Shown: positions 4,477 to 31,275, numbered from the stretch's first letter. The stretch is 34,455 nt of DNA from Bacteroidota bacterium (GCA_021789755.1 JAJYJD010000003.1:1-34455); one strand, 5' to 3'. The notes: generated by a model not told the origin, from the sequence alone. Numbers and translations are program-made.

Positions 4477-4538
4477 TATTTCCACCATTGTTTGAGATAC
4501 GTGTTTAAAAATCACTTTTAAAAACTCCAGTCTATTGT

Positions 4539-6179: not shown

Positions 6180-6312
6180 TTCCAAGTGTATCAAAGAAAT
6201 ATTTCAACATGCTGAGATCCTGGAAGAAGAACCGGGCAGTAATCGAAGTTCCATCGTTCCATTGACCGGCTATCGTAATCTTCCGACATTCCAAAACTCC
6301 CTCTCCCTCCCG

Positions 6313-7944: not shown

Positions 7945-8014
7945 CAAGTTTCTCTCTATATAAAATTGGGTTGATAAGAATGTTTTCGTTCGTTCCTATT
8001 CCACCGGAAACGTC

Positions 8015-9625
8015 TCACTCCATCGCCGGGGCTCTCACTCCGACGCCGGATCTTTTCCGACGCAGGAAGAAGATCGGCACAAGACACACTATCGTTATCA
8101 CGCCGGCGACGAGGAAGGCATCGTTAACTGCGGAAACAAAAGCCTGCTTCATCAGGTGGCCGATAATCAGCGCTCTCCCCCGAAGTATGGATTGCGGTAT
8201 CGAACCGCCAATCGCATGCTGGGAAAACAGTTCCAACCCGCGGATCACTTTCTGAAAAGAGGCGGAATGATCGTTGACGGCCATGCCATAAGACGCTGTG
8301 TGGAAGATGAGCCTGCGTGTCAGCAGTGTTCCAAACATTGCCACACCGAAGCTCCCTCCAACCTGGCGGATCACGTTGAACAAACCCGATGCCTGCGCCA
8401 TTTTGTTTTTTTGAACATTCGTGAGTGCCAGCGTACTCAGCGGGGTAAACATCAGGCCCATTGCAAAACCTCTCAGGTACAGGGGAAGCATTATTTGAGA
8501 GTGCATCGAGAAGAGCGAAAGGAAATAATTCAGGTACATGCTTATTCCGAGGAGAATTATGCCGATCGCGGCAGGAATTCTAGCATCGACCCTGTCGGAC
8601 AGAAAACCGGCAACAGGCGCCATGATCCCCTGCAATATCCCGACCGGGAGGAACACGAGACCCGCCTGGAACGGAGTGTAATTCAATGAATTCTGCAGGT
8701 ATAAGGGCATTAAGAACGTGCTTCCGAACATCCCTAGCCCGAAGATAAAGAGGATGATGTTTGTAATCCCGAAGTTGAAATCTTTCAGCAGTCTCAGCTC
8801 TATCAGCGGATGTCTGACTTTGAATTCGGTTACCAGAAAAACAATCAGGCCGACCAAAGACAGTGCAAGGCAAGTCAGGATGAAAGTGGAAGTCCATCCA
8901 CCGGTGTTCCACGACGCATTGCCGTCCGTCAGCGCCAGGAGAAGGAAAGTCAGGAATACAGCTACGGAGGCGAATCCGAGTAAATCGAAGCTGCGCGTAT
9001 GCTCGGTCTTGTACTCACGCTGAATGACGATTGTCGCGAAGACACCGAGTATCCCGACAGGGACGTTCACATAAAAGATGGTGTGCCACGAGAAATTGTC
9101 TATCAGGTAGCCGCCGATGAGGGGTCCGAAAGAGACGGACGCCGCAGCCGCGATAGACCAGAACCCCAGCGCGATGCCGCGTCTTTCGGGAGGGAATTCA
9201 CGTGTGACAATCGCCATGCCGACCGGCATCAGGAAACCTGCACCCGCACCTTGAATAATTCGAAAAATGACCAATATGTTCTCATCCCAGGCCATCCCGC
9301 AGAGGAATGATCCGATCGTGAAGAGAGCCAGTGCCAGCGCGTAAGTCCGCTTGTAGCCGAAGTGATCCGCCACCCAGCCCGAGGTAGGGAGCATAACCGC
9401 AAGCACAAGGAGGTACGCGGTCATTACCCACTCTATTTTATCGATGGTCACGCCGAATGTCGCCATGATCTTCGGTAGCCCGACATTGACAATGGTGGAG
9501 TCGAGGACCGCCATGAATGTTCCGATCATGACGTTCGCCAGAACCAGCCATTTGTACATCCTGTGACTCTGGTGAAGCACAGATATTTGACCGCGGACCG
9601 ATCCGGCGTTCAGCGCGAGCGACAT
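8015..9625 (-). CDS. DHA2 (EmrB/QacA) family MFS efflux permease, paralog 1
   Basis: Canonical LDSTIVNVGLP, GWVADHFGYKR, FRIIQGAGAG, FGPLIGGYL, WHTIFYVNVPVG; directly follows the EmrA-like gene. Confidence 0.93.
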   Translation of the reverse strand: MSLALNAGSVRGQISVLHQSHRMYKWLVLANVMIGTFMAVLDSTIVNVGLPKIMATFGVTIDKIEWVMTAYLLVLAVMLPTSGWVADHFGYKRTYALALALFTIGSFLCGMAWDENILVIFRIIQGAGAGFLMPVGMAIVTREFPPERRGIALGFWSIAAAASVSFGPLIGGYLIDNFSWHTIFYVNVPVGILGVFATIVIQREYKTEHTRSFDLLGFASVAVFLTFLLLALTDGNASWNTGGWTSTFILTCLALSLVGLIVFLVTEFKVRHPLIELRLLKDFNFGITNIILFIFGLGMFGSTFLMPLYLQNSLNYTPFQAGLVFLPVGILQGIMAPVAGFLSDRVDARIPAAIGIILLGISMYLNYFLSLFSMHSQIMLPLYLRGFAMGLMFTPLSTLALTNVQKNKMAQASGLFNVIRQVGGSFGVAMFGTLLTRRLIFHTASYGMAVNDHSASFQKVIRGLELFSQHAIGGSIPQSILRGRALIIGHLMKQAFVSAVNDAFLVAGVITIVCLVPIFFLRRKRSGVGVRAPAME

Positions 9626-9635
9626 TTTCCCGTTC

Positions 9636-10646
9636 CTACTTTATTCTCACTGCCACTTCGACCGACATCCCGGGCCGCAAAAACGGCATCTGTCCACCCG
9701 GCGTGCTCGGATCGTCTATCGAAATCTTTATCGGTACGCGTTGAGTGACTTTGGTAAAGTTGCCAGAGGCGTTGTCGGGCGGAATGAGCGAAAACTCGGA
9801 TGCGGTGTAACTTCCGATCTCAAATACTCTGCCGGTGAAATTCACGCCCGGATATGTATCGACGTTTATCTGCACGGGGTCACCAAGATGAATATGGCCG
9901 AGCTTCGTCTCTTCAAGGTTCGCCGTGACCCAGACGTTCTTCAGGTCGTAGATGGTGAAGATAGGCTGACCGGGCTGAACTACATCGCCTGCAAGCACCC
10001 ATCTCTTCGCGACAACGCCCTCGATGGGGGAATTCACTACGGTGTTAAGCAATTGAGATTCAATAACGCCGAGCTGCGCGCGCGCGGCGGCAATCTTTGA
10101 AACGGCTATCGCCGCTTCGGCACGCGCGGCGTCGAGAGCCTGTTGCGCGTGAGTGTACTGCTCCTTCGTTATGATTCCGCCCTTGTACTGCACCTCGGCG
10201 CGATTAAAATCATCCTGCGCACGGTTTACGCCGACCTGCGCGAGCGGGACACTTTGCTGCGCGAGTTCAAGCCCCGCCCGGGCGGATGCTTCCTCCGCGC
10301 GGAGATCACGATCGTCAAGCCTGACAAGGACTTGTCCCGCCTGCACGGTGTCTCCCTCGTCGGTGCCCAGATAGACTATTCTTCCAAGCATCTTCGTGCT
10401 GATCGCGACGTTGTTCGCATCGACGTAGGCATCGTCCGTCGAAACGAAGTCCTGCATGTTCATGTACCAGTAATAGCCGCCGATTGCGATCGCCGTCAGA
10501 ACCACAAGTATCGGTATGATGACCCGCTTCTTGCGGAACAGCGGGACATCCTCTATGTCCTCGTCGGCTTCCCCGTTCTCTGCGGACTTAAGAGTCTTCA
10601 GGGCTGCCTGGTCCAGCTCTTTATTGGTTGTGTCTTTGGTCTCCAT
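9636..10646 (-). CDS. HlyD/EmrA family membrane fusion protein
   Basis: Single N-terminal TM helix, STDDAYV, VQAGQVLVRLD, and the EmrA signature FSLIPPDNASGNFTKVTQRVPIKI...LRPGMSV. Confidence 0.95.
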   Translation of the reverse strand: METKDTTNKELDQAALKTLKSAENGEADEDIEDVPLFRKKRVIIPILVVLTAIAIGGYYWYMNMQDFVSTDDAYVDANNVAISTKMLGRIVYLGTDEGDTVQAGQVLVRLDDRDLRAEEASARAGLELAQQSVPLAQVGVNRAQDDFNRAEVQYKGGIITKEQYTHAQQALDAARAEAAIAVSKIAAARAQLGVIESQLLNTVVNSPIEGVVAKRWVLAGDVVQPGQPIFTIYDLKNVWVTANLEETKLGHIHLGDPVQINVDTYPGVNFTGRVFEIGSYTASEFSLIPPDNASGNFTKVTQRVPIKISIDDPSTPGGQMPFLRPGMSVEVAVRIK

Positions 10647-10661
10647 TGATGTTCTTCCTCT

Positions 10662-11273
10662 TTATTTTCTTTTTCTGATTCCGTTTAAAATTATTTCCAC
10701 GATCTCCTTTGCCGATTGCTCGAGAGCCTGGTAGGTTTCCTCGTCCAGAGTGTTTTCACGTTTGTGGAGGAGCCAGGCCCGCGGTCCATAGAGCATCTGA
10801 ATGACGATTTCAGCCGAGTGCTGCGTGTCTGGAATCGAAAACTCGCCGGCCTTCTGCCCGATCACGAGAATCTGCTGAAGCAGGTTAACCTCCTGCTGTT
10901 TGAAGTCGTTGTAGAGTTCGACAAACGTAAGCCTGGTTTCCGCCGGCTGCTGAAACTGGAGGGCTCTCAAGTTGGCAAGATTCTTGAAGTACTGGCTGCG
11001 TTTGCTCGCATACTTTCGCAGCATGTCACAGGCAGGGATTTTCTCGCCCAGCATGGATTGTATATCCCTCAGGAACTGGTCCGATTCCTGTTTAACCACT
11101 TCGTGGAAAAGGCTTTCCTTTGTCGGAAAATAGTAGTAGAGAGACGCCTTTCCCATCCCGATGTCGGCGGCGATTTCATCCATCGTCACCTTCGAAAAAC
11201 CGTAATAGGCGAACCGCTTTCGGGCCGCCTCAAGGATGACTGTTTGCTTCTCGCCAGACAATTGCTCTGTCAT
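10662..11273 (-). CDS. TetR/AcrR family transcriptional regulator
   Basis: HTH ILEAARKRFAYYGFSKVTMDEIAADIGMGKASLYYYFPTKESLF. The ATG at 11273 has an AAGGA RBS upstream. Confidence 0.95.
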   Translation of the reverse strand: MTEQLSGEKQTVILEAARKRFAYYGFSKVTMDEIAADIGMGKASLYYYFPTKESLFHEVVKQESDQFLRDIQSMLGEKIPACDMLRKYASKRSQYFKNLANLRALQFQQPAETRLTFVELYNDFKQQEVNLLQQILVIGQKAGEFSIPDTQHSAEIVIQMLYGPRAWLLHKRENTLDEETYQALEQSAKEIVEIILNGIRKRK

Positions 11274-11354
11274 CAGTTTTCGATCCTTTCCAATAGCCTG
11301 GCGGCAGGCCATGTACATTTGTTTCGTGCTGTCATATTTTCGACCTCATAACCA

Positions 11355-12077: not shown

Positions 12078-13161
12078 TCACCGCTTGATGCACGCACTTC
12101 CGCCTTTCATTACGTGTGTGACTTCGTCCATTGTAACCATGCTTGTATCACCGCGTGTACTTTGTAACAATGCTACGCACGCAACTCCCAGCTCCACGCA
12201 TTCGAGCGGCGACATTCCGCTCAGGAAGCCCTATACGAGTCCGCGGCATAAACCGCCGCCGCCTCCAACACGATCTTAGATCTCGAGGTTCTCGTACCGG
12301 CGCGCCTCGAAAAACTGACCGTCGTGGTACATGCTGGCCGACCAGTTATTTATGAGACCGCTTACCACCTCACGGAGTGTCGTGCCAGCGATTTTGATGT
12401 TCGGAAATTTCTCCACAATACTTCGGACCATATTGTTGTACCGTTCCACAGGAAGATTCCTGAGTTATTCGTCGGTACCCTCAACCCGGAGACCTAGGAC
12501 CTTTTGAAAGATTTCCTCGTTGCCGATTCGAACATCTATATACAGCACGAGAGCCTTTGTCACCTCGACGGCACGCTCGCTTGTCCATAGGTTGCTTCTG
12601 AAATTGATATCATAACTTACGATCGCCCCCGATTCGTGTGCGGCCTTCAAAGCTTCCACTGCCACCTCGGCGCAAGCTGGGGTTAGTGCTGTAAATATCC
12701 AGCCGGTACGAAACCAGCGCGCCCCGCCTGTTTAGAATGCGCGGCTAATCGAACTCGCCCGGTTTGATGTGTGAAATAGCCGTGTCGCCCCGTTGGTATG
12801 TTGTAACGCTAGGTCTGACTCCAATGCCAACCTCTGTGAAGTTGAGACCTATACGGTGGTTTCTTCCGGAACCGTCATACAGTACCCATAAGATCTCGCT
12901 CACCTCCATTCCGCTTGCGCGTGCGTGATTCTTAATTAGCGCACCGAGGCGATTATTCACCAGCCGCGACACCCAACCTGTTCTCAATCCGTATCTCGAT
13001 AACGCGTACGCTACGTTATACTCGCCGCCCCCGACGTAAGCTTCGAAATACGGCGCCAGCTCGATCCTTTGGTGTCCCGCAGGGCTGAGACGAATCATGG
13101 CTTCGCCGAGGGACAGAAGGTCCAATTGACATTCCAACTGCGACTTGATTTTTAAAGACAT
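12078..13161 (-). pseudogene. kdgK: Disrupted 2-keto-3-deoxygluconate kinase (PfkB family)
   Basis: LSLGEAMIRLSP, GGGEYNVAYALSR, RIGLNFTE, VSYDINFRSNLW, DRVGGG, RGDTSMVTMDEV...GGSA.IKR. In-frame stops at 12745 (TAG), 12465 (TAA), 12276 (TAA) and 12231 (TAG); frameshift near 12725-12735; the catalytic GGGD motif reads GGGG. The GGAG RBS is intact. Confidence 0.88.
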
Positions 13162-19301: not shown

Positions 19302-20381
19302 TTATTTGCCGTGACTCAAAATGTGTCGGCTGCAAAACTTCTTCACCAATTCATAACGTCTCGTATCACGATATGGTGTACGGAACACAAGAACGGCGCC
19401 CGCTTGTCTGTAGGCTATTTTCATTGCTTCTTTCAAATAAGATGGAGTTGCCTCTCTGGACCATGACGAATGAGGAGTGAAATAGATGCAGGGTATGAGG
19501 ACTGCCTCCGGGAAAATCTTGGCGAATTCATTGATATTCCCGGGAAGGCTTGCAGAAGACATGCCATATTCTGGAGACAGACTGGCTTTGTGCTGGTATC
19601 CCCATTCCACAGCGTTAACGTATGGCATGTAAGGGCGAATCTCTTCCATGTTTTTCAGCTGGTTCTCATAAATGGTAACCCCCAGTAAGAGATTCCGGTT
19701 TTCCCTTTCTAGAATTGCGTAAATCTTTTTGACGTAGTCGGGAGTGAAATAATTCGTGTTGTAGAGAAAATCGTCGATCATCAACAGCGTGAGATTGTGA
19801 TGGGTCCTGGAAACCCGTCCGATTGCTTTCGCCCACTTTTGATAATTGAGCCTGTACGGCGGATACCGCATTCTCGAGCCATGCTCCAATCCTGGTTCTT
19901 CACTTGGCGGCACCAATACGACCCATACTTCCAAATGAATCTTCGATGCAAGGTGGCAGAATTCAGGGAGGGCATCGAGTTCCGCCGCCGAATGGCTGTC
20001 TATCAGGTAGCTGTAACAGTTGACTCCGAGATCTTTGAGCCTGTCGATCATCTCTTTGATTCTCGGTTTTCCCTGTACGTCGTACTTCATTCCTGCATAT
20101 GCTGCAACCCTTCGATGTCCGGACGGAAACAGTCTTCTCATACGCATGAGCGCGGCAACGTGCTCTTCGTTTTGTTTCGTTATTGTCTGTGAGCTGCGGT
20201 CGGGCGTTTGAAGCTTATCTATTGTCCCCCCGTTCGCATATCTCTCGATATTGACATGAATCGATTTCAGGTTTGCCGCTGAAGCTTTGATGGGACCACG
20301 GGCAAATGCGGTCATGGCATTCGAACTCGTCAGTAGACCGGTGATCATGAAGAGATATAGCAAGTAACTAATTGATTCCAT
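19302..20381 (-). CDS. Secreted hypothetical protein, predicted GH-like TIM barrel ('IDDF' family)
   Basis: Hydrophobic N-terminus; alternating beta/alpha pattern (LKDLGVNCYSY, LEVWVVLVPP, LLMIDDF, LGVTIY, LIPCIYF). Confidence 0.75.
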   Translation of the reverse strand: MESISYLLYLFMITGLLTSSNAMTAFARGPIKASAANLKSIHVNIERYANGGTIDKLQTPDRSSQTITKQNEEHVAALMRMRRLFPSGHRRVAAYAGMKYDVQGKPRIKEMIDRLKDLGVNCYSYLIDSHSAAELDALPEFCHLASKIHLEVWVVLVPPSEEPGLEHGSRMRYPPYRLNYQKWAKAIGRVSRTHHNLTLLMIDDFLYNTNYFTPDYVKKIYAILERENRNLLLGVTIYENQLKNMEEIRPYMPYVNAVEWGYQHKASLSPEYGMSSASLPGNINEFAKIFPEAVLIPCIYFTPHSSWSREATPSYLKEAMKIAYRQAGAVLVFRTPYRDTRRYELVKKFCSRHILSHGK

Positions 20382-20441
20382 GTGAGTTGGGTTCCTAAGT
20401 AAAGTGACGCCTGAGGATAGACGCAGCTGTCAATAGAGCTG

Positions 20442-23342
20442 TCAGAAGCTCGTCTCGAGTCCAATGTCGGCGGTCATGCCGTATGAATTCTCCGATTGCG
20501 GAAAACTGGATCCGCCGTTTAGATAGAGATCCTTTGCGCCGTTAATGTTGTTCATATCGAAGAAGAGCCGGAGATGATACCAGGGAAGCCCCTGTTTGGC
20601 GGCGAGGTCCCACCTGAGATAGTTTGCCCCGTACTCTCTTAACTCAGACCAGAATTCAGCTCCCTGAAAGACGTTCGACTGGAACAGCATTGAAACGCGA
20701 ATCGAGAATTCCTTGTAATCATACCCGATGGCCAGGTTGGCAATGTCATCAGGCTGGTAAATCAAACGATCTGTATAGAAGGTATCGTTTACGACCTGCT
20801 GGTATTTCGGCAGGTAAATGGTAGTCACTGTCGTGAGGGGATATTTGGCGCGCGAAAAGATATGAGTAAAATTCGCACTTAAGACTAAACCCGACAATGG
20901 ACCTGGGAGATACCAGAAGTGAGTTTCCCAATCAATTTCAGTCCCATACAGATTGACAACGTTCGGGTTGTTAATTGATGTTGATAATGGTTCCCCTTTT
21001 GTGTTGCTCGGTATCCCCGGATAATCTGCCGGATTCACTACGTAAGTGTTCACCGGAAATATCAGGTTGCGAATATGCTTGAGGAAACCGTCGACCGTCA
21101 GTAAACCGACTGTGTTGTTATAAATCGAAAGAATGGCGTCGTAGTTGGTCGAATGTGCTGGTTTAAGAGCGTAATTGTGCCAGACCACGCTCTGGTACCC
21201 GATGTTGATCCTTGGTGTGATAGCATCAAAGGACGGGTATGTAAGAGTATTCGTGTAAGCCAGGTGAATCTGCATCCATGAAAGTGGCTTGACAATCAAG
21301 TGTGCCATCGGAAGCCAAAAACCGTGCGTCTCTTCAATGGTGGTATCATGGTACTCATAAGAAAGTGGTGTCTGAGTTCCCCTTGGAGCTGTATACGAAG
21401 TTGAGAGCTGCTGGAACCTTACCCCTGGCAGGATAGTCAAGTCCTGACCGATGCTCAGCGTATACATGATGTAGGCAGCACTCTCTCGCTCAAAGCCATT
21501 ATAGTTGTTGGTGGCCGATAAGAAATCATTAGTCGCCACATCGGTCTCATAGTCGTATGATTGCGGAGGTGGTGACTGATTAATGACATTCATTACCTGG
21601 TGCATCAGGCCGATGTTCAAGGGCACCCCCATGCCATATTGACCATTCAGAAAGTTCCCATAGCTAAAGTTTGGATCCTCAAAGAGGGTAATCGGTAAGT
21701 ATATACTCCCTGAAGGAACGGAACTCTGCATCCACGGAAAGGCATTCAGGATTGCTTGAATGGTTGTATCGATTCCGTTTATTTGGAAGCGGTTAGCCTG
21801 ACTCAAGTAATTATAAGATTTTGTAGTGTATCTGTATGCCCCGCCGAATTTCAGAATGCTGGTAATATCTCTCGAAAAATTGATGTTTGACAGGAAATCG
21901 ACTTGTGCCGAAAGCTGACGGTTTCTGGACAAGCTGCTCGACTGCAGGGCGGATTGAAAATCGGTTTGTGATAGATCGTTCTTCGCAAGTGTCGGAATAA
22001 CCTGTGGACTCAAACGTTGATAGTTGGCATTGTTCAGGCCGACATCGGTTTGTTCAAAGCTGAAAGTCAAAAGGTTCGGTACTGAGGTCTGAGAATAGGA
22101 GTGAGCAAACTTTGCATCTACAGCGAACAGCGGGAATATTTCTTTGATGTCAAGGAGATTTGTGATGATGTCAAGAATACTGTTCTCGTCCGTCGCACTG
22201 TAGCTGTGAGTATTATTCACCAGATCGTAGTTCTCGTTTCTTATTTGTTCGTTTGTGTTGCCGGAACTCAGGAAGTTCATGAGCTCCACCTTAAGTGTGG
22301 GACGCTTGTAATCCATGACCACCTCAGCGCCGTAACGTTGCCTGTATCTAGGTATATCGGTCAGGCTTAAGTCCTGCATGTAGACCGGGTTTGGTTTCCC
22401 TAGTTGGGGTGCGTTCAAGTTGTAGGTTGCACCGAGTTCATTTGCGGTTAGATTGCGTCCCTCAATATTTGCCTCAGCAAATACTCCGAACCGATTGTTG
22501 AAGAAGCGGGACTCCGCGGTGCCTACCACCTTGTAGTTGGAATGCGTGCCGATCAAGGCATTGTACCCGCCCTGCGCCAGCAAGGAGGTCAGGATGCCTT
22601 TTTTTGATTCCCGAGCTTCCCTGAGTTCGAGATTGACAATTCCACCAACGGCTGCCGCGTCCATGTCTGGCGTAATCGCTTTGATCACCTCTATCCCCCC
22701 GAGCATGTTCGAGGAAATATCGCTCAAGTCGACTGCGCGACTCGATGAAACGTTTGGCGGAACCTCAATTCCATCGATCGTAATCTCGTTGTACTGCGGT
22801 GCCAGTCCTCGAATAACAACTTGCGCCCCTTCTCCGCCTTCCCTCACGAGAGAAATCCCTGGGAGCCGGCCAATCGATTCTGCCGCATTTGCATCGGGAA
22901 GTTCACGTATTCTTGCCGCTGAGACGACGTTCATTATCTGCTCGGATGAAAGCTGCTGGTTTATAGCAGAATTCTGACCGGCAGCCTGCGCTGTCACGAC
23001 CACTTCTTTCCCCTTCACTCCGACGGCATGCAACCCGAAGTCTCGCCTTGTTGTGTTATTTGAAGAGACTTCGATACTAAACTCCTGATTGCCATAACCC
23101 ACATAGGAGGCGCGCAATTTGTACATGCCAGCAGGCACATCGTTCACCACGAAGTGGCCATCATCGTTTGACACCGCACCCATGCTCGTTCCGACGAGAA
23201 GGACATTTGCACCTATGAGAGGTCTGCGTGTTTGAGCGTCCCTGACGTACCCTTCAACTATGCCGCTTGATGCAAAAGCCAAAGATGGAACTGAACTCAC
23301 CGCTAACACCGCCAGGATCAGGGGAAGAATTTTTCTATGCAT
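20442..23342 (-). CDS. TonB-dependent receptor with N-terminal carboxypeptidase-regulatory-like domain
   Basis: Signal peptide; GYVRDAQTRRPLIGANV..GTSMGAVSNDDGHF; plug domain ELPDANAAESIGRLPGISL...IRGLAP...IEVIKAITPDMDA; terminal Phe (GLETSF). Confidence 0.95.
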   Translation of the reverse strand: MHRKILPLILAVLAVSSVPSLAFASSGIVEGYVRDAQTRRPLIGANVLLVGTSMGAVSNDDGHFVVNDVPAGMYKLRASYVGYGNQEFSIEVSSNNTTRRDFGLHAVGVKGKEVVVTAQAAGQNSAINQQLSSEQIMNVVSAARIRELPDANAAESIGRLPGISLVREGGEGAQVVIRGLAPQYNEITIDGIEVPPNVSSSRAVDLSDISSNMLGGIEVIKAITPDMDAAAVGGIVNLELREARESKKGILTSLLAQGGYNALIGTHSNYKVVGTAESRFFNNRFGVFAEANIEGRNLTANELGATYNLNAPQLGKPNPVYMQDLSLTDIPRYRQRYGAEVVMDYKRPTLKVELMNFLSSGNTNEQIRNENYDLVNNTHSYSATDENSILDIITNLLDIKEIFPLFAVDAKFAHSYSQTSVPNLLTFSFEQTDVGLNNANYQRLSPQVIPTLAKNDLSQTDFQSALQSSSLSRNRQLSAQVDFLSNINFSRDITSILKFGGAYRYTTKSYNYLSQANRFQINGIDTTIQAILNAFPWMQSSVPSGSIYLPITLFEDPNFSYGNFLNGQYGMGVPLNIGLMHQVMNVINQSPPPQSYDYETDVATNDFLSATNNYNGFERESAAYIMYTLSIGQDLTILPGVRFQQLSTSYTAPRGTQTPLSYEYHDTTIEETHGFWLPMAHLIVKPLSWMQIHLAYTNTLTYPSFDAITPRINIGYQSVVWHNYALKPAHSTNYDAILSIYNNTVGLLTVDGFLKHIRNLIFPVNTYVVNPADYPGIPSNTKGEPLSTSINNPNVVNLYGTEIDWETHFWYLPGPLSGLVLSANFTHIFSRAKYPLTTVTTIYLPKYQQVVNDTFYTDRLIYQPDDIANLAIGYDYKEFSIRVSMLFQSNVFQGAEFWSELREYGANYLRWDLAAKQGLPWYHLRLFFDMNNINGAKDLYLNGGSSFPQSENSYGMTADIGLETSF

Positions 23343-23380
23343 TATGCCCTCTTGAAATAGATAATGATTATCCGATCACG

Positions 23381-24712
23381 CTATGGCTTTAATTGTATGT
23401 TAGGCAATACGATTTGCATTCCTGGCTGCAATTCGATGTCAAATGTCTCCGGCTGGTATGGCGCCTTAGCAACCTCAACTTCATAAGACGAGCCATTACT
23501 TTCCCCCGCCCAGCCGCCGAAGCTGTATTCACCTTCGTTCGAAGTGAACTTTCTAGAAACGAGCTGTGTGTTCTTTGCTGTCAGTCTTTGTACGGAAACA
23601 AGCGCATTGGCGACCGGGTTGCCGGTACGAGCGTCGATTACCGTTCCCGTTGCCTCACCAAGATTCGGATAGTAGAGGCTGTCCAGAAATGGAGGAATTG
23701 CGAGTGAGTCCCAGCGCTGCTGAGTTATGTACTGTTGGGTCAGCCATGGCGCCGAGAAGAGAAGCGCTCCACCAATCTCTCCCTGATCATACTTGCTTAT
23801 GGAGTTCTGAATCATATACTTGATGCTGACCGGCGTCATCTGTTCGAGAGAGTTCTTGAAATACACTCCCACAATTATCCCCTTGCCTGGATAATTTTGC
23901 TTCACAGTACTTATGTACTGATCAAGATTAGTGTAGTTCTCGTTCTGATGGTGCATCCATAAATTGACTCCGTCGATCAAGTTAACGACCGACTGGCTGG
24001 AAATGCCGAGTTGATCCTCATACACGACCACATAGAGTCTCAGATTCGGAGTAGTGGCCTGAGATGTATCCTCGACATTCCCGTTTCCATCAAGGGTTTT
24101 TCCCTCGAGAGCCTCCCTGATCTCCTGCAACTGAGAAACAGTTATTTTGCCCCCTTGAAAATTCTCGAAGAAATCATCGATAATAATACCGGAAATCTGC
24201 GGATACTCCTTCGACAACTCCGAGAACCTATGAGCAGCCTGGATCATTCCGGGCGATTGCGCAAAAGGCTGAAGAAGAATAGTATCCCCGGGCTGGTTGA
24301 CGACCCCACCTTCCGTGGGCGGCCGCAATACTCCGTAGACTTTGTTTGTGTTCCAAATCGTGCAGTTGTCAACCAGATTTGTCTGAAATGTGTATCCATA
24401 GTATTGAGCTTGAGATATAACACCATTTAATCCGAAGTTGAATGCGGTTTGAATCAATTCTCCTGAAGGCCAGCCCCAGCCGCCGTAGATCGTGCCTGTC
24501 GAATTATGGTACAAACCGATGAACCCTGGAATTTTTTCCGTAACCGGAGTCGAACTTGTCGGACCGACTATCCCGTTTGAATAAGGCGATTTTGAACAGC
24601 CCTCGAGCATTACAAAAGAAAAAAAGGAAAGAACGGCTACCGATTTCAACATTTTGGACACCACCGGATTGTCATCACAAAATGAAAAGGTTCTCCAAAG
24701 TCGCGCTATCAT
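23381..24712 (-). CDS. Putative lipoprotein: 'IDDF' TIM-barrel domain plus C-terminal carboxypeptidase-regulatory-like domain
   Basis: Lipobox VMLEGC after a hydrophobic stretch; ISGIIIDDFF; C-terminal GTVIDARTGNPVANALV...TSNEGEYSF...YEVEVAKAPY. The start is 24712 or 24652. Confidence 0.78.
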   Translation of the reverse strand: MIARLWRTFSFCDDNPVVSKMLKSVAVLSFFSFVMLEGCSKSPYSNGIVGPTSSTPVTEKIPGFIGLYHNSTGTIYGGWGWPSGELIQTAFNFGLNGVISQAQYYGYTFQTNLVDNCTIWNTNKVYGVLRPPTEGGVVNQPGDTILLQPFAQSPGMIQAAHRFSELSKEYPQISGIIIDDFFENFQGGKITVSQLQEIREALEGKTLDGNGNVEDTSQATTPNLRLYVVVYEDQLGISSQSVVNLIDGVNLWMHHQNENYTNLDQYISTVKQNYPGKGIIVGVYFKNSLEQMTPVSIKYMIQNSISKYDQGEIGGALLFSAPWLTQQYITQQRWDSLAIPPFLDSLYYPNLGEATGTVIDARTGNPVANALVSVQRLTAKNTQLVSRKFTSNEGEYSFGGWAGESNGSSYEVEVAKAPYQPETFDIELQPGMQIVLPNIQLKP

Positions 24713-24719
24713 AGTGGCT

Positions 24720-26921
24720 TCATCTCCCTGTATGATCAGACATGTCAATCAACCTGTAGCTGCGAGGCATGACTTGTATTTTGAGTGCTGCGTTATTCTT
24801 CGACTTTGCTATTTCTTTTCCGGCAACAAGATCCTTCCAATTCTGAGTCTCACCTTTATAATAAGGCGTCAACGGCATAAGAGTGATTTCGAGCTTTGAA
24901 TTGTTGTGATTCACCACCGCTGTCACAAAACCCGATCTGGTTTTAGAAACCGCCACGTCGCAATTCTGATTTGTTCCCACGATATCAACATAGCGCTGTA
25001 CCCCGATGTAGTTAAAGACATCGCGCACCAGATATGGGAATTTGCGGGCGGCAGTCTGCGCATCGGTCAGAACAGAGACAACCTTCCCCTTACCATAAGT
25101 GTTCAAGGTTATTGCAGGAGACTCGTCTTCAAACGTCGCAATGACATTTGCGCCCTCAGTTCTCCACACTGGAAGCGTCACTCTCCCAAGCTCCCATTTC
25201 TTGCCAGTAACAGTTCTCTCTCGAAAATCAAATCGGTCGATAATGGCGATATGTGTCCGACTTTTCCCGGTTTTTTCAATCCCAAAGAGAATAGTGCGGT
25301 TGTAAGTCGTGCCCATAGGTATTCTGGGACCGAATGCGACAACTGTCCCTCCTCTCTCAAGAAAATGCTTCATCAACTCGCTGTCGGTTTCATTTAGACC
25401 CGATAGACTCGGGAACACCAACACTTCTTTTGCTTTTAACATCTGCGTCAAGGCACGTGAATTCGCGCGGACCGGGTAGTACGGTGGGTAAGATTCTTCA
25501 TGAAATGGCGCCCATGGAAGAATGTCCACCGGGATTCCCATTGTCCTAAATGCATCAAGGGCACTGTAATAATCGCGTTCCCATCTATATTCCTGGAAGT
25601 CTGTCCAGGGAATATAGACTGCCAGTTGGTTCCGGTGTGCGGAAGCATTACCGATCAAATCAAATGCCTTCATCCCGTCAAAAACTGCGTCGCGGCTCCG
25701 ATCAAACTCCTGTCGGTACTGGGGATATCGCCTGAGGGTATTGTAAATAACCCCGCTGTAATTGAACATTATAATGCCATCGTTATGCGGAACCGTCGCG
25801 GCGCTCATGAATTGCTGATAGATGTTGTTGTAACTTGCGATGTACAAATGCTTCAGGGCGTTCTCCAGGTAACCGAAAAGTTCAACATGAGTCAAGACGA
25901 TTTTGCTTTGAAGTTCAGATGCACCCGACGCAATTGAGCCGAAGTCTTTGACCCTCCTGAAAGGAAATTTGATGCGGTTATCAGGTCTGTAACTAGCCAT
26001 TACCATTCCCTGGTATATTATTATGTTGAGACTCCTGATAGCGCTGAGGTAACCGGCAAGCAATGGATTATCCGTATACGGAGCACAAGCAGTGAGCAAT
26101 CCGGGATTTACTTCCTTGACATAGTCGCAGAACTCTCTCACGTATGTTGCATAGTATATTCCACTCCCTTCCTGATACGAGTAGAACCCAACAAGAGAAG
26201 GATGGCTTCCATACAGGCTGTAGAGTTCTTTGATGATCTCGTGCGTGCTCTTCATTCGTTGAGGAGGCGGGATCACTCTGGTCATGTCCCAGCTGACCGA
26301 TAGCACGACCGAAATGCCGTTTTCATCTGCGCATTTCAATAGACTGCTTAGGTAACTCTGGTCGATTGGAGAGGAACTATCCATGTTGCAGATTTTCGAT
26401 CTGTAGTAAACCCTGCGGGGGGTGATTATCGTATGAGCTATAAGAAAGTTCGCCCCGAAGTTTTTTAACTCGCCGATGTATTTGTCCATATCGGATTTGA
26501 GACCCTTCGGATCGAAGACTCCGATCATACAGAAATCCCCGATGATCTTCTTGAACAGGAACACTGCTTTTCCTATAGCCGCCGGTCTGGCCCTATCGCC
26601 TACCCAGGCCTGAATTGCATAAAGTCCTTGTGGACCATTTCTTCTGATAATGAAGTGCGAATCATAAACGGAAGTTTTCACTTTTTTCAGGCAGAGTGGA
26701 ATTGCACCTTCGTCGGGGATAAGGATCACAGCGTTGAGCGGGTTCTCATCCGCAGATTCAACCACGATGTTCACAGTGTCTCCGATAGTCACTTCGGATG
26801 GGGTGACCGAGATCTTGATAACTTCGCCCGATGCTTTCATCGCCGGAAGAGCAGCGATTAGAATTGCAGAAATAGCGATGAGCCTGAAAAGGAAGCGGGT
26901 TGGCGTACTTTCAGATATCAT
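24720..26921 (-). CDS. Secreted GH-like protein: Ig-like domain, DUF4434-like TIM barrel and GH42-trimerisation-like domain
   Basis: ATGA-coupled to the AGE stop codon; signal peptide; LLKCADENGISVVLSV...ELYSLYGSHPSLVGFYSYQE; THVELFGY; FLERGGTVVA; IATFEDESPAITLNTYGKGKVV. Confidence 0.78.
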   Translation of the reverse strand: MISESTPTRFLFRLIAISAILIAALPAMKASGEVIKISVTPSEVTIGDTVNIVVESADENPLNAVILIPDEGAIPLCLKKVKTSVYDSHFIIRRNGPQGLYAIQAWVGDRARPAAIGKAVFLFKKIIGDFCMIGVFDPKGLKSDMDKYIGELKNFGANFLIAHTIITPRRVYYRSKICNMDSSSPIDQSYLSSLLKCADENGISVVLSVSWDMTRVIPPPQRMKSTHEIIKELYSLYGSHPSLVGFYSYQEGSGIYYATYVREFCDYVKEVNPGLLTACAPYTDNPLLAGYLSAIRSLNIIIYQGMVMASYRPDNRIKFPFRRVKDFGSIASGASELQSKIVLTHVELFGYLENALKHLYIASYNNIYQQFMSAATVPHNDGIIMFNYSGVIYNTLRRYPQYRQEFDRSRDAVFDGMKAFDLIGNASAHRNQLAVYIPWTDFQEYRWERDYYSALDAFRTMGIPVDILPWAPFHEESYPPYYPVRANSRALTQMLKAKEVLVFPSLSGLNETDSELMKHFLERGGTVVAFGPRIPMGTTYNRTILFGIEKTGKSRTHIAIIDRFDFRERTVTGKKWELGRVTLPVWRTEGANVIATFEDESPAITLNTYGKGKVVSVLTDAQTAARKFPYLVRDVFNYIGVQRYVDIVGTNQNCDVAVSKTRSGFVTAVVNHNNSKLEITLMPLTPYYKGETQNWKDLVAGKEIAKSKNNAALKIQVMPRSYRLIDMSDHTGR

Positions 26922-28297
26922 TTCTGATTCACTGCTTCCGCTGCTCCTGGCCACGCTGGTCGCCCGCCATTGTTTTCCAATTTCTCTAATGCCAGGTATG
27001 TCAGCATGAGGTGGCGGGGCAAATGATAGTTCTCTATGCGATCGTAATGTGGCGTGAAAGTGACCTTCCTATCCGCTGCAGTGATCCATAAATGGTATCC
27101 GAATGGCTTGAGCCAATATTTGGCAACCATATACTCATACGTTTTCGCAAACCATTCTTTTGCCCACTCGTCCCCGGACTGCTCAATGAGAACCATCATG
27201 CCGTTCAATGCCTCCTCCTGCGCCCAGAGGACCTTTGGAGTCCTTTTGATTTCCCACAGGTCCAGATCCACGTTATTCAAGCTCCTGAGAACTCCCGAGT
27301 AAACCTGGTCCCATGCAACTTCCACATGGCGTTTGAATCTCTCCGCCGCGGTCCGGAACAATTTCAAATCCTTGGATCCGACCGCCTCTTCCATAATCGG
27401 TCGAAAGGTCTCGATAGAATGGCCTGTGTAGACAAACTCGGACAGATAATTGTCGGGACGCGAATAGTCGTGGTTGAGAAGCTCATTGTTTAGTCTGAAC
27501 TCGGGGTTGAAGTGTTTGCTTAGGACGGCATCAATGCACTTCGATCTTATCTCCTCCAGGTCTGGATCACTCCGGTGCTCAAGCATCCCATTGATAGTGG
27601 TGAGCATTACCATTGCAACACCCTGGATTCTGGCTCCTGGAAACGGGATCACTTTGGGGCCGGAATAGTCCGCCACAATTCGTGGATAATAGTCGGGGCG
27701 ATTATAGATCTTCCAGCATTTTAGGATGATCTCTTTCGCGGTGTTCCAGTATTTTTGTTCGCCTGTAGCGAAAGAATACTCGCTCAAACCCTCCGCAACG
27801 AAAACACTTCCATAAATTCTCTTTGAAGGTGGCGTAAGTGGTTTGCCTTCGCGAGTGATAACGGAAGGCCAGAGACTGTCCCCGGTGGGCTCGGTCTTCA
27901 TTATCAGCTTCAACGAGTTGGTCGCGACATCGAGGTATTTCTCGTCGTTTCCGAAATGCCTGTAGAGGAACGAGTAGACCCAGATGCCCCTTCCTTCGAA
28001 CCAGGTGCGCTTCTTTGTGTTGAGCCTCGTTCCGTCCCTGTCGTCGTTACACATGAAACCGCCGTACTTATGGTCGATCACGTACTTATCCATGAAGGGA
28101 AGAAAGTCTTCAAAAAGGTAGTAGTGATAATCATCACGGAGTTTCTTTAGAGACAGATCGCCGATTTTTAGCTTTGTGGTTCCGGAATCCATTCTCCGCC
28201 GGTCTACGGTGACTCTCTTCAACAAACTTTCGCTGCCAGAGTATTTGGCGGCCAGAATACTTCCGATTGAAGCAGCAACAAACTTGCGCCTGTCCAT
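26918..28297 (-). CDS. AGE family (N-acylglucosamine 2-epimerase-like) protein with twin-arginine N-terminus
   Basis: LPFMDKYVIDHKYGGF, WFEGRGIWVYS, GHSIE, WDQVYSG, KVLWAQEE, YHLPRHL; N-terminus MDRRKFVAASIGSILAA. Confidence 0.88.
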   Translation of the reverse strand: MDRRKFVAASIGSILAAKYSGSESLLKRVTVDRRRMDSGTTKLKIGDLSLKKLRDDYHYYLFEDFLPFMDKYVIDHKYGGFMCNDDRDGTRLNTKKRTWFEGRGIWVYSFLYRHFGNDEKYLDVATNSLKLIMKTEPTGDSLWPSVITREGKPLTPPSKRIYGSVFVAEGLSEYSFATGEQKYWNTAKEIILKCWKIYNRPDYYPRIVADYSGPKVIPFPGARIQGVAMVMLTTINGMLEHRSDPDLEEIRSKCIDAVLSKHFNPEFRLNNELLNHDYSRPDNYLSEFVYTGHSIETFRPIMEEAVGSKDLKLFRTAAERFKRHVEVAWDQVYSGVLRSLNNVDLDLWEIKRTPKVLWAQEEALNGMMVLIEQSGDEWAKEWFAKTYEYMVAKYWLKPFGYHLWITAADRKVTFTPHYDRIENYHLPRHLMLTYLALEKLENNGGRPAWPGAAEAVNQK

Positions 28298-28398: not shown

Positions 28399-31275
28399 TT
28401 ACTTTGTGCTTCGCAGCGAGTCCGTCGGCGAAAAGGCGCGAGAGGGCACCTCTCTGACATCAATCTTCGCTAAAGAGATTTGCGGAATACAGAATTCCGC
28501 AAGCGCATCTACATTACCTGTGCCGTCAGCGTTGACAAATTCGCCACCGTGCAAGACACAATCGAGCGTGTCGCAGGATTGAGATACCGGTATTTCGGAA
28601 ATCGATTTGAAGTACGATCCGTTCCAGACTTGTATTTTGCCGTGGTAGTCTGATTTGTAAACCATTCTTATTTCATAATTAGCATGAGTGTTCACACCGT
28701 TTATCCAGAAGCGGGGTCCGCCTGCGAGAGTTGAATATTTTCCTGTTCGAAATGTTATCCCGTTATCCGACTGCGGAGCGGACCACTGACCATTGTAGTA
28801 GAATGAAACACCCGGATCGTGGTCGTACTGATTATTATCGATATAGGCAATTCCGCTATATCGAAGTTTGCCTGTTTCTCCGGCAGCCACCCCAATCCAT
28901 TGATATCCGATTTTTCCTCTAGAAGGCATCGGGGTCGGAGCGACTTGGCCTTGCATGATGATCCTTGGCTTCCCGTTGACGGGAATGAACATTTCGCGTT
29001 GCGTCAGGCCTAAAGTCGTGAAGTGAATAAAGTAAGTATCGTGTTCGACGTTTTTCGGCACAGTCAGATAAAACCAGAACGTGTGCTTTTCGCCCGGTAA
29101 CAGTTTATAAGGTTCTCGCACGGAGGTTGTCATGTGACTCCATTGCTCAGGCAACGTCATAGTCAGAGTGTCGCTAATTGTGGCATCCAAAGCATTGAAC
29201 AATGTGACTGAAACTCTTTGTCTGCTACCAACTAGTACATTTCGCGATGATTCGTCGGGGTGAAGAAGCGGAAAAGTGTTGTTGGACATTACCAAGGCAC
29301 CGTAATTCTTGATCCGTGGCAGACGAAGAATGATGTTACCACCTCTAACTACGGGCTTTATGGCACAGAGTCTGTTGTTGTCAAAATAGACTGCAAACCT
29401 CCTCTTCATACTCGAGGGAAGTTCCAACTCCACGTGTCGCGCACTACTGCCCTTCTTGCTTCCAAGGATTAAGAACAAAGAGTGCGAATATCGTCCTTTC
29501 GTCTGATACTGTTCGAATGTATAGCTGTGCGGTAAATTCCGGATCTTCACAAGCATGTCCATGTGTTCTCTAGCAAGAAGAGGTAAGATCTCTGCAAGGA
29601 ATTGAAGATCACCGGGAATGATGTAGAGAATTCCCTTTCCCAAGTGGCGCAGCAATACGGCTGGTTTTCCATCCGACCATCTCGCCAGTACTAAATCTCT
29701 CGGTTCAGCATTCAATTCGAACCCGTTGGCTAATATCTCCTTCTCTCTTGTAAAGGCTGACATCCGAGACAAAAAATGTAATGTATCCTCGACGTAGTGA
29801 GTGTAATCGCATCGCAACAATTTCTGATAATCAGGCGGGATTTGATCTTCCTCGTTTCCAACAGTGTACTTTGACAGCTTGAAATCGAAATCATCATTCG
29901 GATTAGGAATGATGTTCGTCTTCGGGTCAAGCACAGAAATCAGCGTACCACCATCTTTAAGGAACCTGGTAATCGAAGATATTTGTTTTTCTGACAGTCC
30001 GACCGGCGAAGGTACTATCCAGATCCTACTGTGGACGTTTCCAAGATTAGCCGCAAATGCTTGTGGAACGTGGGCTATTGCGAGAGGTGTCCAAGCCATG
30101 TTGACAAAAGCTGTCCCGCCCAATCCCGTTTCCCTGGGAATGACTGTAGTTACCGCAGCTACCAACTTCGAACCTGCATAATACGGGACATACCTCTGGA
30201 CACTCAGCACACCTTTGCACCATGCAGCCCAACGCCAAAATGCATTTCTGTGTGTCAGAATATCATAGCCATTGAAGAGATCAAAGTAATTGAAAAAGTG
30301 AATTCCACAAGTTGTTGCCGTCAGCAGGACCCCCTGTGACACTCGATAGACTTGATCTTTCGGTATGGCACGCTCTCCGTATCCATTCATGTAATGGGTA
30401 TGGACTATTGTTTTTACGCGGTCCGACAGACCCTGAACGAAATCGGTTAGCCCGCGAAAACCCTGCATTTCCCGATAATTGGACAAAAAGTAGCTGAACT
30501 CGGAAAAATTCCCGATATAGAACTGTACGTTTTCGATATTTACTCTACCGGAGTGAATATGATTCAGGATCGTTCTGACCACTTCAGCAAACGGTCCGTT
30601 TGGAAAATCCATTACTGTCATATCGGGGTTAATCCTTAATGCAGTCTGGGCTAACTCCGAAAACTCATCGGCATTGAGATTCGGCGATCTGGATTCCACC
30701 GGTGGTACAAAGCCTCTGAATGCTGGATATTTCTTAAACCGTTCTACCATGTCGGTAGTGATGTCGTTTAGATAATCGAAGTATCTCCTATTGGACAATC
30801 CGTCTGGGACCAAAGCTAATCCGAGATATCCAGACATATGATGGGTTTCACATTCATCGAGAAAGTCCTTTACTGGATTGCGTCCGAGCCAAGGCTTCAC
30901 CTGAGGTTTTAGTTTCGGGTTGTCGTTCGGGTAGACCGATCCATTGTTCCTGTATACGTATGCGTAGGTGAGCATATTGATGCCGACTTGTTCTAATCTC
31001 GTAAACAGTCTGTCCCTCATCGCACTGGTTGAAATATCCCAAGCCGGGCGAGAACGGGGCCCATCCTTGGGTGCAGATCCCCAGTAAAACGACCCGATAT
31101 AATAAGGTGGAACGGGTAACGGTGAATTAACAAGCATCTTGTCAATATGATTATCACCGGATGAAGGAGGAGTTGATGACGCCGCCGGTGAAGATTGGCG
31201 AGCAGAACATTTGGGAGCAGCAAAGAGGGATAACCCCACAATTAATGAAGCGAGCGCCTTCATCTTAAATTTCAA
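28399..31275 (-). CDS. Large secreted GH-like protein: DUF4434-like TIM barrel, trimerisation-like domain, NEW3-like Ig domain, C-terminal beta domain
   Basis: Signal peptide and Ser/Pro linker; FLDECETHHMSGYLGL...RFKKYPAFRGF; FLKDGGTLIS; LARWSDGKPAVLLRHLGKG; VTLFN...TLPEQW...LLPGEKHTFWFYLTVP. Confidence 0.72.
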   Translation of the reverse strand: MKFKMKALASLIVGLSLFAAPKCSARQSSPAASSTPPSSGDNHIDKMLVNSPLPVPPYYIGSFYWGSAPKDGPRSRPAWDISTSAMRDRLFTRLEQVGINMLTYAYVYRNNGSVYPNDNPKLKPQVKPWLGRNPVKDFLDECETHHMSGYLGLALVPDGLSNRRYFDYLNDITTDMVERFKKYPAFRGFVPPVESRSPNLNADEFSELAQTALRINPDMTVMDFPNGPFAEVVRTILNHIHSGRVNIENVQFYIGNFSEFSYFLSNYREMQGFRGLTDFVQGLSDRVKTIVHTHYMNGYGERAIPKDQVYRVSQGVLLTATTCGIHFFNYFDLFNGYDILTHRNAFWRWAAWCKGVLSVQRYVPYYAGSKLVAAVTTVIPRETGLGGTAFVNMAWTPLAIAHVPQAFAANLGNVHSRIWIVPSPVGLSEKQISSITRFLKDGGTLISVLDPKTNIIPNPNDDFDFKLSKYTVGNEEDQIPPDYQKLLRCDYTHYVEDTLHFLSRMSAFTREKEILANGFELNAEPRDLVLARWSDGKPAVLLRHLGKGILYIIPGDLQFLAEILPLLAREHMDMLVKIRNLPHSYTFEQYQTKGRYSHSLFLILGSKKGSSARHVELELPSSMKRRFAVYFDNNRLCAIKPVVRGGNIILRLPRIKNYGALVMSNNTFPLLHPDESSRNVLVGSRQRVSVTLFNALDATISDTLTMTLPEQWSHMTTSVREPYKLLPGEKHTFWFYLTVPKNVEHDTYFIHFTTLGLTQREMFIPVNGKPRIIMQGQVAPTPMPSRGKIGYQWIGVAAGETGKLRYSGIAYIDNNQYDHDPGVSFYYNGQWSAPQSDNGITFRTGKYSTLAGGPRFWINGVNTHANYEIRMVYKSDYHGKIQVWNGSYFKSISEIPVSQSCDTLDCVLHGGEFVNADGTGNVDALAEFCIPQISLAKIDVREVPSRAFSPTDSLRSTK

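Follow-up and report, generated by a model that had tools for sequence, protein, structure and literature searches.

In a 34,455-nt stretch of DNA from a Bacteroidota bacterium (hereafter the window; the genome to which it belongs comprises 3.48 Mb and is 94% complete), two genes, here termed A (P0001) and B (P0002), flank a gene encoding a TonB-dependent receptor. Our analysis indicates that the two proteins are distant homologues that can be assigned to two families of one superfamily, that both are predicted to fold as (β/α)8 barrels with a pair of aspartates directly after strand 4, and that both are probably active enzymes. We put the probability of the full reading, in which an outer lipoprotein B and a periplasmic A form a pair of glycosidases that cleave a polymer of uronic acids and amino sugars at N-acetylhexosamine (HexNAc) residues by a substrate-assisted mechanism, at roughly 0.4. 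An earlier note, made from the DNA sequence alone, had described the two genes as distant paralogues of a TIM-barrel family with an IDDF motif that may encode either a surface/periplasmic pair of HexNAc-directed hydrolases or binding proteins that replace SusD.

A direct BLASTP comparison aligned residues 151-242 of A with residues 104-215 of B at 25% identity (E = 0.003). The four colinear sequence blocks reported in the earlier note were all found, in the same order, together with a fifth (EVWVVLVPPSE in A, KVYGVLRPPTE in B). For A we gathered 44 relatives, for B 78, and the resulting profiles were compared with hhalign. The 44-sequence A alignment and the 60-sequence B alignment matched with a probability of 96.4% (E = 1.3e-9) over 148 columns that include every block. 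A 23-sequence A alignment free of LamG domains gave 97.0% (E = 8.7e-11; 172 columns, strands 3-8; 95.4% in the reverse direction), and 49 distant superfamily domains, from which close relatives of A were left out, still matched B with 97.9% (E = 5.3e-13; 175 columns, again strands 3-8). Controls with two reversed and ten column-shuffled alignments did not exceed 0.5% (E ≥ 0.13). Single sequences of other proteins were likewise not recognized by the A and B profiles: the values were 16.8% and 0.1% for the DUF4434-like 744-aa neighbour, 1.4% and 4.3% for an acidobacterial DUF4015/GHL10 protein, and 0.2% and 0.7% for the 958-aa neighbour. In a six-frame search of its own genome, the A profile matched only A and B (E = 2e-4 for B); the B profile found B and the β-sandwich of one unrelated protein. 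On the strength of the profile comparisons, the clean controls and the genome search, we assign A and B to one superfamily, as true distant homologues rather than close paralogues, in agreement with the paralogy originally proposed. That their similarity is due to chance or to generic convergence of barrels would fit the pairwise E value of just 0.003 and the failure of database-scale searches with hidden Markov models (HMMs) to join the two families (HMM-to-sequence cross scores ≤26.9 bits), but the agreement of three independent profile-profile comparisons in one strand register, the silence of all 12 controls, the low values in all six comparisons with other barrel proteins and the position of B as the sole other match of the A profile in the genome leave this idea with a negligible likelihood.

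Structural models of both proteins were calculated with AlphaFold2 from the family alignments, strands were assigned by DSSP, and the models were searched with Foldseek against the PDB and with VIA-align against 48,161 chains. Both proteins are confidently predicted to be complete (β/α)8 barrels, as the TIM-barrel assignment had implied. The model of A has a predicted local distance difference test (pLDDT) value of 85 overall and above 90 over residues 75-358, with eight strands (91-95, 122-127, 151-156, 197-202, 232-236, 257-261, 294-300, 329-333) and eight helices. The model of B (pLDDT 93.5) contains eight strand-helix units (strands 45-47, 75-79, 104-109, 153-158, 205-211, 228-232, 258-264, 295-299) followed by a C-terminal sandwich. 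The best 50 VIA-align rows of A, nearly all of them glycosidases, reach Z scores of at least 16.2. They are led by the glycoside hydrolase (GH) of family GH164 6t5o (Z 19.1, root mean square deviation 4.0, 258 residues aligned) and GH5 8ag9 (Z 18.7), and several GH5 and GH42 members of clan GH-A score 17-19 over 240-267 aligned residues. For B, the best match is GH53 6gp5 (Z 15.9, root mean square deviation 3.3, 236 aligned), followed by GH2 and GH39; clan GH-A members score 14-16, and 4h41 (BT_0435, entitled putative alpha-L-fucosidase) 14.6. The best Foldseek match of A is Cwp19 (5oq2; E = 1.8e-7, template modelling (TM) score 0.53), and many other glycosidase barrels, among them GH2, GH35, PgaB and PslG, score similarly. 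All these lists form plateaus, which show a glycosidase-type barrel and no specific family.

In both models, the Asp-Asp pair of the IDDF motif directly follows strand 4 (D203-D204 in A, D159-D160 in B) and lies on the C-terminal, catalytic face of the barrel, where the earlier note had expected it. The pair is invariant in the 44 A-family and the 60 B-family sequences. In a broad superfamily alignment of 23 sequences, the first aspartate is present in all and the second in 22, and the glutamate of the PPSE motif, which follows strand 3, in 19. No sequence of the A family lacks this glutamate (E161), and its aligned counterpart E114 is nearly invariant in the B family. Invariant residues of A at or just past strand ends are Y95, Y125, E161, D203, D204, Y238, W260/Q263 and Y300, and their equivalents in B are E114, D159, D160, Y211, W232 and Y264. 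No conserved acid follows strand 7 in either family; the motifs there are IYF (Y300-F301) in A and VYF (Y264-F265) in B.

Neither barrel has a match in Pfam or NCBIfam, in line with the description of the family as unnamed, although a recent CAZy family may already cover it. Three profiles, one of them broad, found no relative among the sequences of the PDB (best unrelated matches E = 0.0067 to 1.5). Out of 1.84 billion, the A profile retrieved 520 cluster representatives at E ≤ 1e-3, of which 339 reached E ≤ 1e-10. Ninety of its best relatives share no common Pfam family and carry scattered accessory domains (LamG, LRR_5, ThuA, BACON). A word search with the broad profile returned at least 120 relatives, none with a Pfam domain and all unnamed or entered as 'hypothetical protein', from Pedosphaera, Phycisphaerae, Bacteroidales, Proteiniphilum and Chitinophaga lutea (P0330; a record not marked as a metagenome-assembled genome, MAG). 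Within a sample of the phylum, the A profile matched only 2 of 201 genomes, both of the same genus as the window. Leads from the ESM Atlas point the same way: the 30 clusters nearest to A are all unnamed (one that bears DUF4434 has a feature score of 0.88), and those nearest to B, with scores of at most 0.85, pair a glycosidase-type barrel with CarboxypepD_reg. Literature searches by name, which cannot reveal an unnamed family, found no paper on it. As far as these searches reach, A is to be regarded as a member of an unnamed superfamily and B as a separate branch of it.

The N-terminus of A is a plain hydrophobic signal peptide. B has a lipobox cysteine, Cys19 (LEG-C-S), and an additional C-terminal β-domain related to CarboxypepD_reg, so that the contrast between a lipoprotein and a simply secreted protein, drawn previously, is confirmed. 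The cysteine was found in 10 of 79 listed N-termini of the B family, all from close relatives; 8 of 78 B homologues have a type IX secretion system (T9SS) sorting domain, and other relatives of B a plain signal peptide. B is therefore likely to be the surface or extracellular member of the pair and A, with its signal peptide only, the periplasmic one, which makes the proposed division of labour between surface and periplasm plausible. The maximal open reading frame (ORF) of B spans 23381-24748. We placed its start at the ATG at 24652 (MLKSV...), which yields a canonical lipoprotein signal and is common to four close homologues (P0048, P0049, P0051, P0052). An alternative ATG at 24712 ('MIARLW...'), which is where the earlier note set the end of its region, lies 8 nt past the stop codon of the upstream gene, is immediately preceded by GGGAGA and adds 20 residues; mature B is identical from either start. 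The ratio of nonsynonymous to synonymous substitutions (dN/dS) is 0.18-0.26 for A compared with its orthologues and 0.08-0.09 for B. Therefore, both genes are under purifying selection.

A and B are part of a block of nine minus-strand ORFs that runs from about 31940 down to 13969 with intergenic gaps of -37 to +116 nt, in the order RraA-like protein, 958-aa protein, AGE-like protein, 744-aa DUF4434-like/GH42M-like protein, B, TonB-dependent receptor, A, β-helix protein and heparinase II/III-like protein (Table 1). We examined its conservation in 35 genome loci with a relative of B, compared by BLASTP with the proteins of the window, and in 79 metagenome loci with A-type genes. The whole block is kept in three 'Bacteroidetes bacterium' and Candidatus Kryptoniota MAGs (L001-L003) and, as far as the end of the contig, in a fourth (L004). 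Two further loci (L005, L006) contain a rearranged block that still comprises A, B, the receptor, the β-helix gene and the heparinase-like gene; the β-helix gene is syntenic in all of these except L004. The most consistent partner of B is the heparinase-like gene (19 of 35 loci), followed by AGE-like (14) and DUF4434-like genes (12), and homologues of the receptor and of A occur in five loci each. In 17 loci from Pyrinomonadaceae and other Acidobacteriota, the heparinase-like gene lies directly upstream of B in 14, often overlapping it, and B is at the contig edge in the other three. Ten MAG loci from Methanosarcinales/Methanothrix (L025-L034) contain B alone, at 38-42% identity and with CarboxypepD_reg retained, without the bacterial operon partners; in one of them (L032), a NosD-like β-helix protein is encoded upstream of B and a NEW3-domain protein nearby. 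B, receptor and A are also adjacent in two metagenome loci (L041, L083).

These neighbourhoods give two indications of the substrate. The heparinase-like gene, its lyase architecture and the remnant of a KDG-kinase gene downstream of the operon suggest a uronic-acid polymer; according to PMC11262172, the combination of DUF4962 and Hepar_II_III is the architecture of polysaccharide lyase families PL15 and PL35, which act on uronic-acid polysaccharides. Amino sugars are suggested by an acidobacterial locus (L035) and by a DegT gene beside an A-type gene in L052. L035 begins with two SSF transporters around an FAH-family hydrolase, a DUF4015/GHL10 barrel, the heparinase-like gene and B, and continues with a glucuronyl-esterase-like hydrolase, a NagK-like kinase (E = 1.8e-29, below the cut-off), an SIS isomerase, CutC, an M20 amidohydrolase, a DegT aminotransferase and AGE-like and DUF4434-like genes. 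Among the 79 A-type loci, GFO/IDH/MocA oxidoreductases are neighbours in 16 and heparinase-like genes in three. A Pfam run on 82 proteins from 17 of these loci, picked for length and diversity, identified ceramidase-like proteins, DegT, xylose-isomerase-type barrels, a sulfatase, a GHL6 + GH42M protein and a GH123_N protein.

Two further observations concern the wider families. A-type genes fused to LamG (L052, L056, L068, L071) adjoin proteins with weak neutral-ceramidase-like (PF04734) N-terminal matches, and GFO/IDH/MocA oxidoreductases, a DegT aminotransferase and xylose-isomerase-type barrels are encoded nearby; these neighbourhoods may hint at a branch of glycan breakdown that is oxidative or concerns amino sugars. 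Genes of the B family also form tandem arrays: the metagenome locus L082 (3-6656) has four copies followed by an A-type gene, L006 has three, and L015 and L022 have two apiece.

Taken together, the fold, the placement of the invariant residues, the secretion signals and the genes nearby lead us to regard A and B as glycan-active proteins, putatively enzymes. They would act as two glycan-cleaving enzymes around a TonB-dependent transporter that has no SusD partner. Outside the cell, the lipid-anchored B would cut the polymer or fragments that the heparinase II/III-like enzyme releases from it; the receptor would import the products, and A would complete their breakdown in the periplasm; we infer this order of action (B, receptor, A). 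The catalytic centre would be the Asp-Asp pair after strand 4, set in a pocket rich in Tyr and Trp to which strands 1, 2 and 5-7 contribute their C-terminal ends, and the reaction would be a retaining hydrolysis of an N-acetylhexosaminide bond with neighbouring-group participation, in a polymer of amino sugars and uronic acids. Because no conserved carboxylate follows strand 7 and some relatives do without the glutamate after strand 3, we judge neighbouring-group chemistry to be the likeliest mechanism, ahead of one of the clan GH-A type. HexNAc specificity and substrate-assisted chemistry, for which a GH84-like mode of action is suggested by the residue pattern alone, are nevertheless put forward only tentatively, since the nearest folds are those of clan GH-A, the AGE-like gene is a weak indicator and a classical mechanism involving the glutamate is also conceivable.

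GH84 enzymes have two adjacent aspartates at the C-terminal end of a barrel strand. With GH84 and GH20, A and B share the (β/α)8 barrel, two neighbouring carboxylates at a central strand's C-terminal end, the lack of an enzymic nucleophile elsewhere and a pocket rich in Tyr and Trp. PMC10570127 gives GH20 a conserved Asp-Glu pair at the barrel's C-terminal end, an oxazolinium intermediate and the signature H-x-G-G-D-E, and places the catalytic residues of GH84 and GH85 at an equivalent site. A and B differ from GH84 in that neither matches PF07555 at E ≤ 0.1, nor does any of the 44 A-family members at E ≤ 1; across the phylum sample, this domain was seen in just 1 genome out of 121, and no candidate from the window's own genome has it. 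They differ from GH20 in lacking a PF00728 match and an H-x-G-G before the pair (NLTLLMI-DD in A, QISGIII-DD in B), and from both families by the additional conserved glutamate after strand 3 and by their closest structural neighbours. The GH18 motif of strand 4 is D-x-x-D-x-D-x-E. It is absent from A and B, which have no match to PF00704, and GH18 structures appear only in the middle of the lists.

Several observations weigh against HexNAc hydrolysis by such a pair. The nearest folds belong to clan GH-A and not to GH20, GH84 or GH18. GH84 is absent among the listed structural matches of both proteins, the Foldseek list of A has GH20 only in places 23, 32 and 49 and a GH18 in place 37, and GH18 chitinases rank lower in VIA-align (2dsk, Z 16.5, for A; 9buf, 13.3, and 3fnd, 13.2, for B). 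Members of clan GH-A have an acid/base glutamate after strand 4 (in an N-E motif) and a nucleophilic glutamate after strand 7. Although clan GH-A gives the best whole-barrel match and its acidic position after strand 4 is occupied in A and B, these have Asp-Asp after strand 4 and Tyr-Phe after strand 7 instead of the glutamate pair. One superfamily member has Asp-Asn in place of Asp-Asp, and how D203, D204 and E161 are oriented and spaced was deduced from the secondary-structure string only. The AGE-like gene, cited earlier as a fitting neighbour, does encode a member of the AGE superfamily (PF07221), but its product reaches only 136.7 bits with NF052547 against an equivalog cut-off of 600 and looks exported, which makes it a weak sign of N-acetylglucosamine (GlcNAc) metabolism. 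No amino-sugar catabolic gene was recognized within the window and no glycan-degradation neighbour of B in the ten Methanosarcinales loci, and the context of more distant A-type genes is heterogeneous. The proposal of a HexNAc hydrolase pair therefore keeps the Asp-Asp pattern, the missing strand-7 acid and the amino-sugar genes beside acidobacterial B on its side, but has the GH-A folds, the AGE result and the strand-3 glutamate against it.

This glutamate, conserved in both families, is also the starting point of the alternative that we take most seriously, though we consider it unlikely: A and B could be classical two-carboxylate glycosidases, retaining or inverting in the sense of Koshland, whose substrate sugar is not HexNAc but, for instance, some uronic acid or neutral sugar. 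The aspartate after strand 4 is the nucleophile in GH13, GH27, GH29 and GH31. The first strand-4 aspartate would serve as nucleophile or base, with E161 (A)/E114 (B) or the second aspartate as its partner. The alignment of the PPSE and PPTE glutamates between the families and their near-complete conservation agree with this, as do the GH29-type fucosidases in the Foldseek list of A (8ozu, 9hz1, 9eu4, 9pnj) and an operon context (heparinase-like gene, KDG-kinase remnant) that speaks equally for uronic acid. But the glutamate is missing in 4 of the 23 diverse superfamily members, which keep the Asp-Asp pair, E161 opens a loop modelled with low confidence (residues 161-170 of A have low local pLDDT), and no conserved acid follows strands 5, 6 or 7, the usual sites of the acid/base in such families.

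Another class of enzyme on a glycosidase-like barrel, such as a metal-dependent lyase, an esterase/deacylase or a phosphodiesterase that has a decorated glycan as its substrate, with the glutamate and the two aspartates as metal ligands, seems improbable to us. Three carboxylates after the adjacent strands 3 and 4 could make a metal site, luciferase-like monooxygenases (2b81, 6fri; TM score 0.30-0.41) occur in the Foldseek list of B, and esterase-like, sulfatase and GDPD genes are neighbours in other phyla. However, the best VIA-align rows of both models are nearly all glycoside hydrolases (Z 13-19), there is no conserved cluster of histidines or other typical metal-site signature, and the aromatic-rich pocket would be typical of sugar binding. 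Among named families, DUF4434 (PF14488), GHL6 and the Cwp19-type GHL10/DUF4015 proteins resemble A and B in being secreted barrels of uncharacterised activity in like loci (in Acidobacteriota, the heparinase-like gene has a DUF4015/GHL10 gene as its neighbour, and the operon of the window contains a DUF4434-like gene). PF14488, PF14871, PF02638 and PF13200 match neither A nor B, and the 44-sequence A and 90-sequence superfamily alignments share no barrel match with the DUF4434/GHL models.

Finally, A, B or both might be non-catalytic glycan-binding proteins that feed the receptor in the role of SusD or a surface glycan-binding protein, which we regard as quite improbable. SusD proteins have a fold of their own and pair obligately with a SusC-type receptor. 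B is a lipoprotein encoded directly beside the receptor in the absence of a SusD partner, its barrel lacks the canonical GH-A glutamate pair, and it carries an extra β-sandwich, all of which would suit a binding protein. But its fold (barrel plus β-sandwich) is not SusD-like, and the receptor belongs to TIGR01782 rather than SusC/RagA, with a homologue beside B in no more than 5 of the 35 loci. No TonB receptor goes with B in the 17 acidobacterial loci, where it lies next to the heparinase-like gene, or in the ten loci of Methanosarcinales, archaea that to our knowledge have no outer membrane; a SusD-replacing function, the second option of the earlier note, is therefore disfavoured. The retention of the Asp-Asp pair across the superfamily (at least 520 cluster representatives) in many domain contexts looks catalytic as well.

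Table 1. Positions of A, B, their main features and the neighbouring genes in the window
Feature	Position	Strand	Remarks
Protein A (P0001), 359 aa	19302..20381	-	ORF; signal peptide, linker 15-60 poorly modelled, predicted (β/α)8 barrel
A, barrel domain, residues 91-353	19323..20111	-	DSSP strands
A, Asp203-Asp204 (IDDF motif)	19770..19775	-	directly after strand 4
A, Glu161 (PPSE motif)	19899..19901	-	loop after strand 3; possible second catalytic carboxylate
Protein B (P0002), 423 aa from ATG 24652	23381..24652	-	lipoprotein signal, predicted (β/α)8 barrel, C-terminal β-sandwich
B, Cys19, lipobox cysteine (LEG-C-S)	24596..24598	-	kept in close relatives P0046-P0052, P0056, P0059
B, barrel domain, residues 43-326	23675..24526	-	DSSP strands
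B, Asp159-Asp160 (IDDF motif)	24173..24178	-	directly after strand 4
B, CarboxypepD_reg-like β-sandwich, residues 335-421	23390..23650	-	PF13620, E = 2.2e-9; modelled β-strands 331 to 421
RraA-like aldolase-family protein, 222 aa	31272..31940	-	PF03737, E = 2.9e-30; first gene of co-directional block
958-aa secreted protein, no family	28399..31275	-	no Pfam/NCBIfam match; syntenic in L001-L004
AGE-superfamily (α/α)6 protein, 459 aa	26918..28297	-	PF07221, E = 2e-18; N-terminus twin-arginine-like (MDRRKFVAAS)
744-aa protein, weak DUF4434-like barrel + GH42M-like domain	24720..26954	-	PF14488, 29.0 bits (cut-off 30); PF08532, E = 1.9e-7
TonB-dependent receptor, 966 aa	20442..23342	-	N-terminal CarboxypepD_reg-like domain, plug, β-barrel (PF13715, PF07715, PF00593)
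Right-handed β-helix protein, 626 aa	17305..19185	-	T9SS C-terminal sorting domain; PF13229, PF18962, TIGR04183
Heparinase II/III-like protein, 1110 aa	13969..17301	-	DUF4962 + Hepar_II_III_C (Pfam)

The receptor between the two genes is indeed TonB-dependent, as originally annotated: besides its Pfam domains, it scores 331.6 bits with TIGR01782 (TonB-Xanth-Caul; cut-off 310), and only 54.6 bits with the SusC/RagA model (cut-off 368). The AGE-superfamily protein begins with MDRRKFVAASIG, which resembles a twin-arginine export signal; an exported protein of this fold is more likely to be an enzyme that acts on glycans in the periplasm than a GlcNAc 2-epimerase of the cytoplasm. The 744-aa and 958-aa proteins share a region of about 350 columns (BLASTP, 22% identity, E = 9e-5) and look like a second pair of distant paralogues within the operon.

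Downstream of the heparinase-like gene, an otherwise empty stretch of 2.6 kb contains a PfkB KDG/KDGal-kinase-like gene in four colinear pieces (12078-13161, minus strand), interrupted by in-frame stops and a single frameshift. In NF041633, a fusion model of KHG/KDPG aldolase and sugar kinase, they correspond to positions 242-360, 367-451, 457-510 and 531-574; the gene may have decayed to a pseudogene, or the assembly of a low-coverage MAG may be at fault. In a repeat scan of this gap, only short families of two copies and a single imperfect inverted repeat came up. Further on, an efflux-type block (3148-11318, minus strand) encodes an outer-membrane factor, three tandem major facilitator superfamily transporters (551, 544 and 536 aa), an HlyD-family adaptor and a TetR regulator. 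Rfam and tRNA scans of the window gave no match, and the numbers of predicted promoters (26 against 24.7) and terminators (17 against 17.0) equalled those expected from shuffled sequence. Most of the stretch is present in runs of one mine-drainage metagenome study; no RNA run containing it was listed.

The operon resembles SusD-less TIGR01782 loci and the polysaccharide utilization loci (PULs) of Bacteroidota in its co-directional TonB transporter, its combination of secreted or surface proteins with periplasmic glycan-active ones, and the sugar metabolism encoded downstream. In contrast to typical PULs, the block contains no SusD gene and no recognized regulator gene, and nearly all of its products (A, B and the 958-aa, DUF4434-like, β-helix and heparinase-like proteins) belong to unnamed or uncharacterised families. 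It is a variant of a familiar kind of system and not a new kind. What is new is an unnamed, fairly large glycosidase-like family, as predicted from sequence and models, with an unusual catalytic signature in a conserved operon that is almost wholly unannotated, unless a recent CAZy family already includes it. We regard it as rather doubtful, though worth stating, that the relatives of A and B constitute a new glycoside hydrolase family or clan with Asp-Asp after strand 4 and a mechanism different from that of clan GH-A, by neighbouring-group catalysis or otherwise, of which this pair around a SusD-less transporter would help to degrade a polymer of amino sugars and uronic acids, and whose B branch would extend through Bacteroidota-like bacteria, Acidobacteriota and Methanothrix.

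Should A and B serve for binding alone, or represent a minor variant within clan GH-A, the present assignment would be a useful annotation and no more. If they are true glycosidases, a sizeable and currently invisible family would join the catalogue of carbohydrate-active enzymes, with a catalytic signature that differs from that of its nearest structural neighbours. The homologue in Chitinophaga lutea (P0330) offers a possible experimental entry point. The conserved module of heparinase-like, B, AGE-like and DUF4434-like genes, joined by A and the transporter in some lineages and with relatives in MAGs of Pyrinomonadaceae and other Acidobacteriota, would mark a pathway of polymer degradation beyond current annotation.

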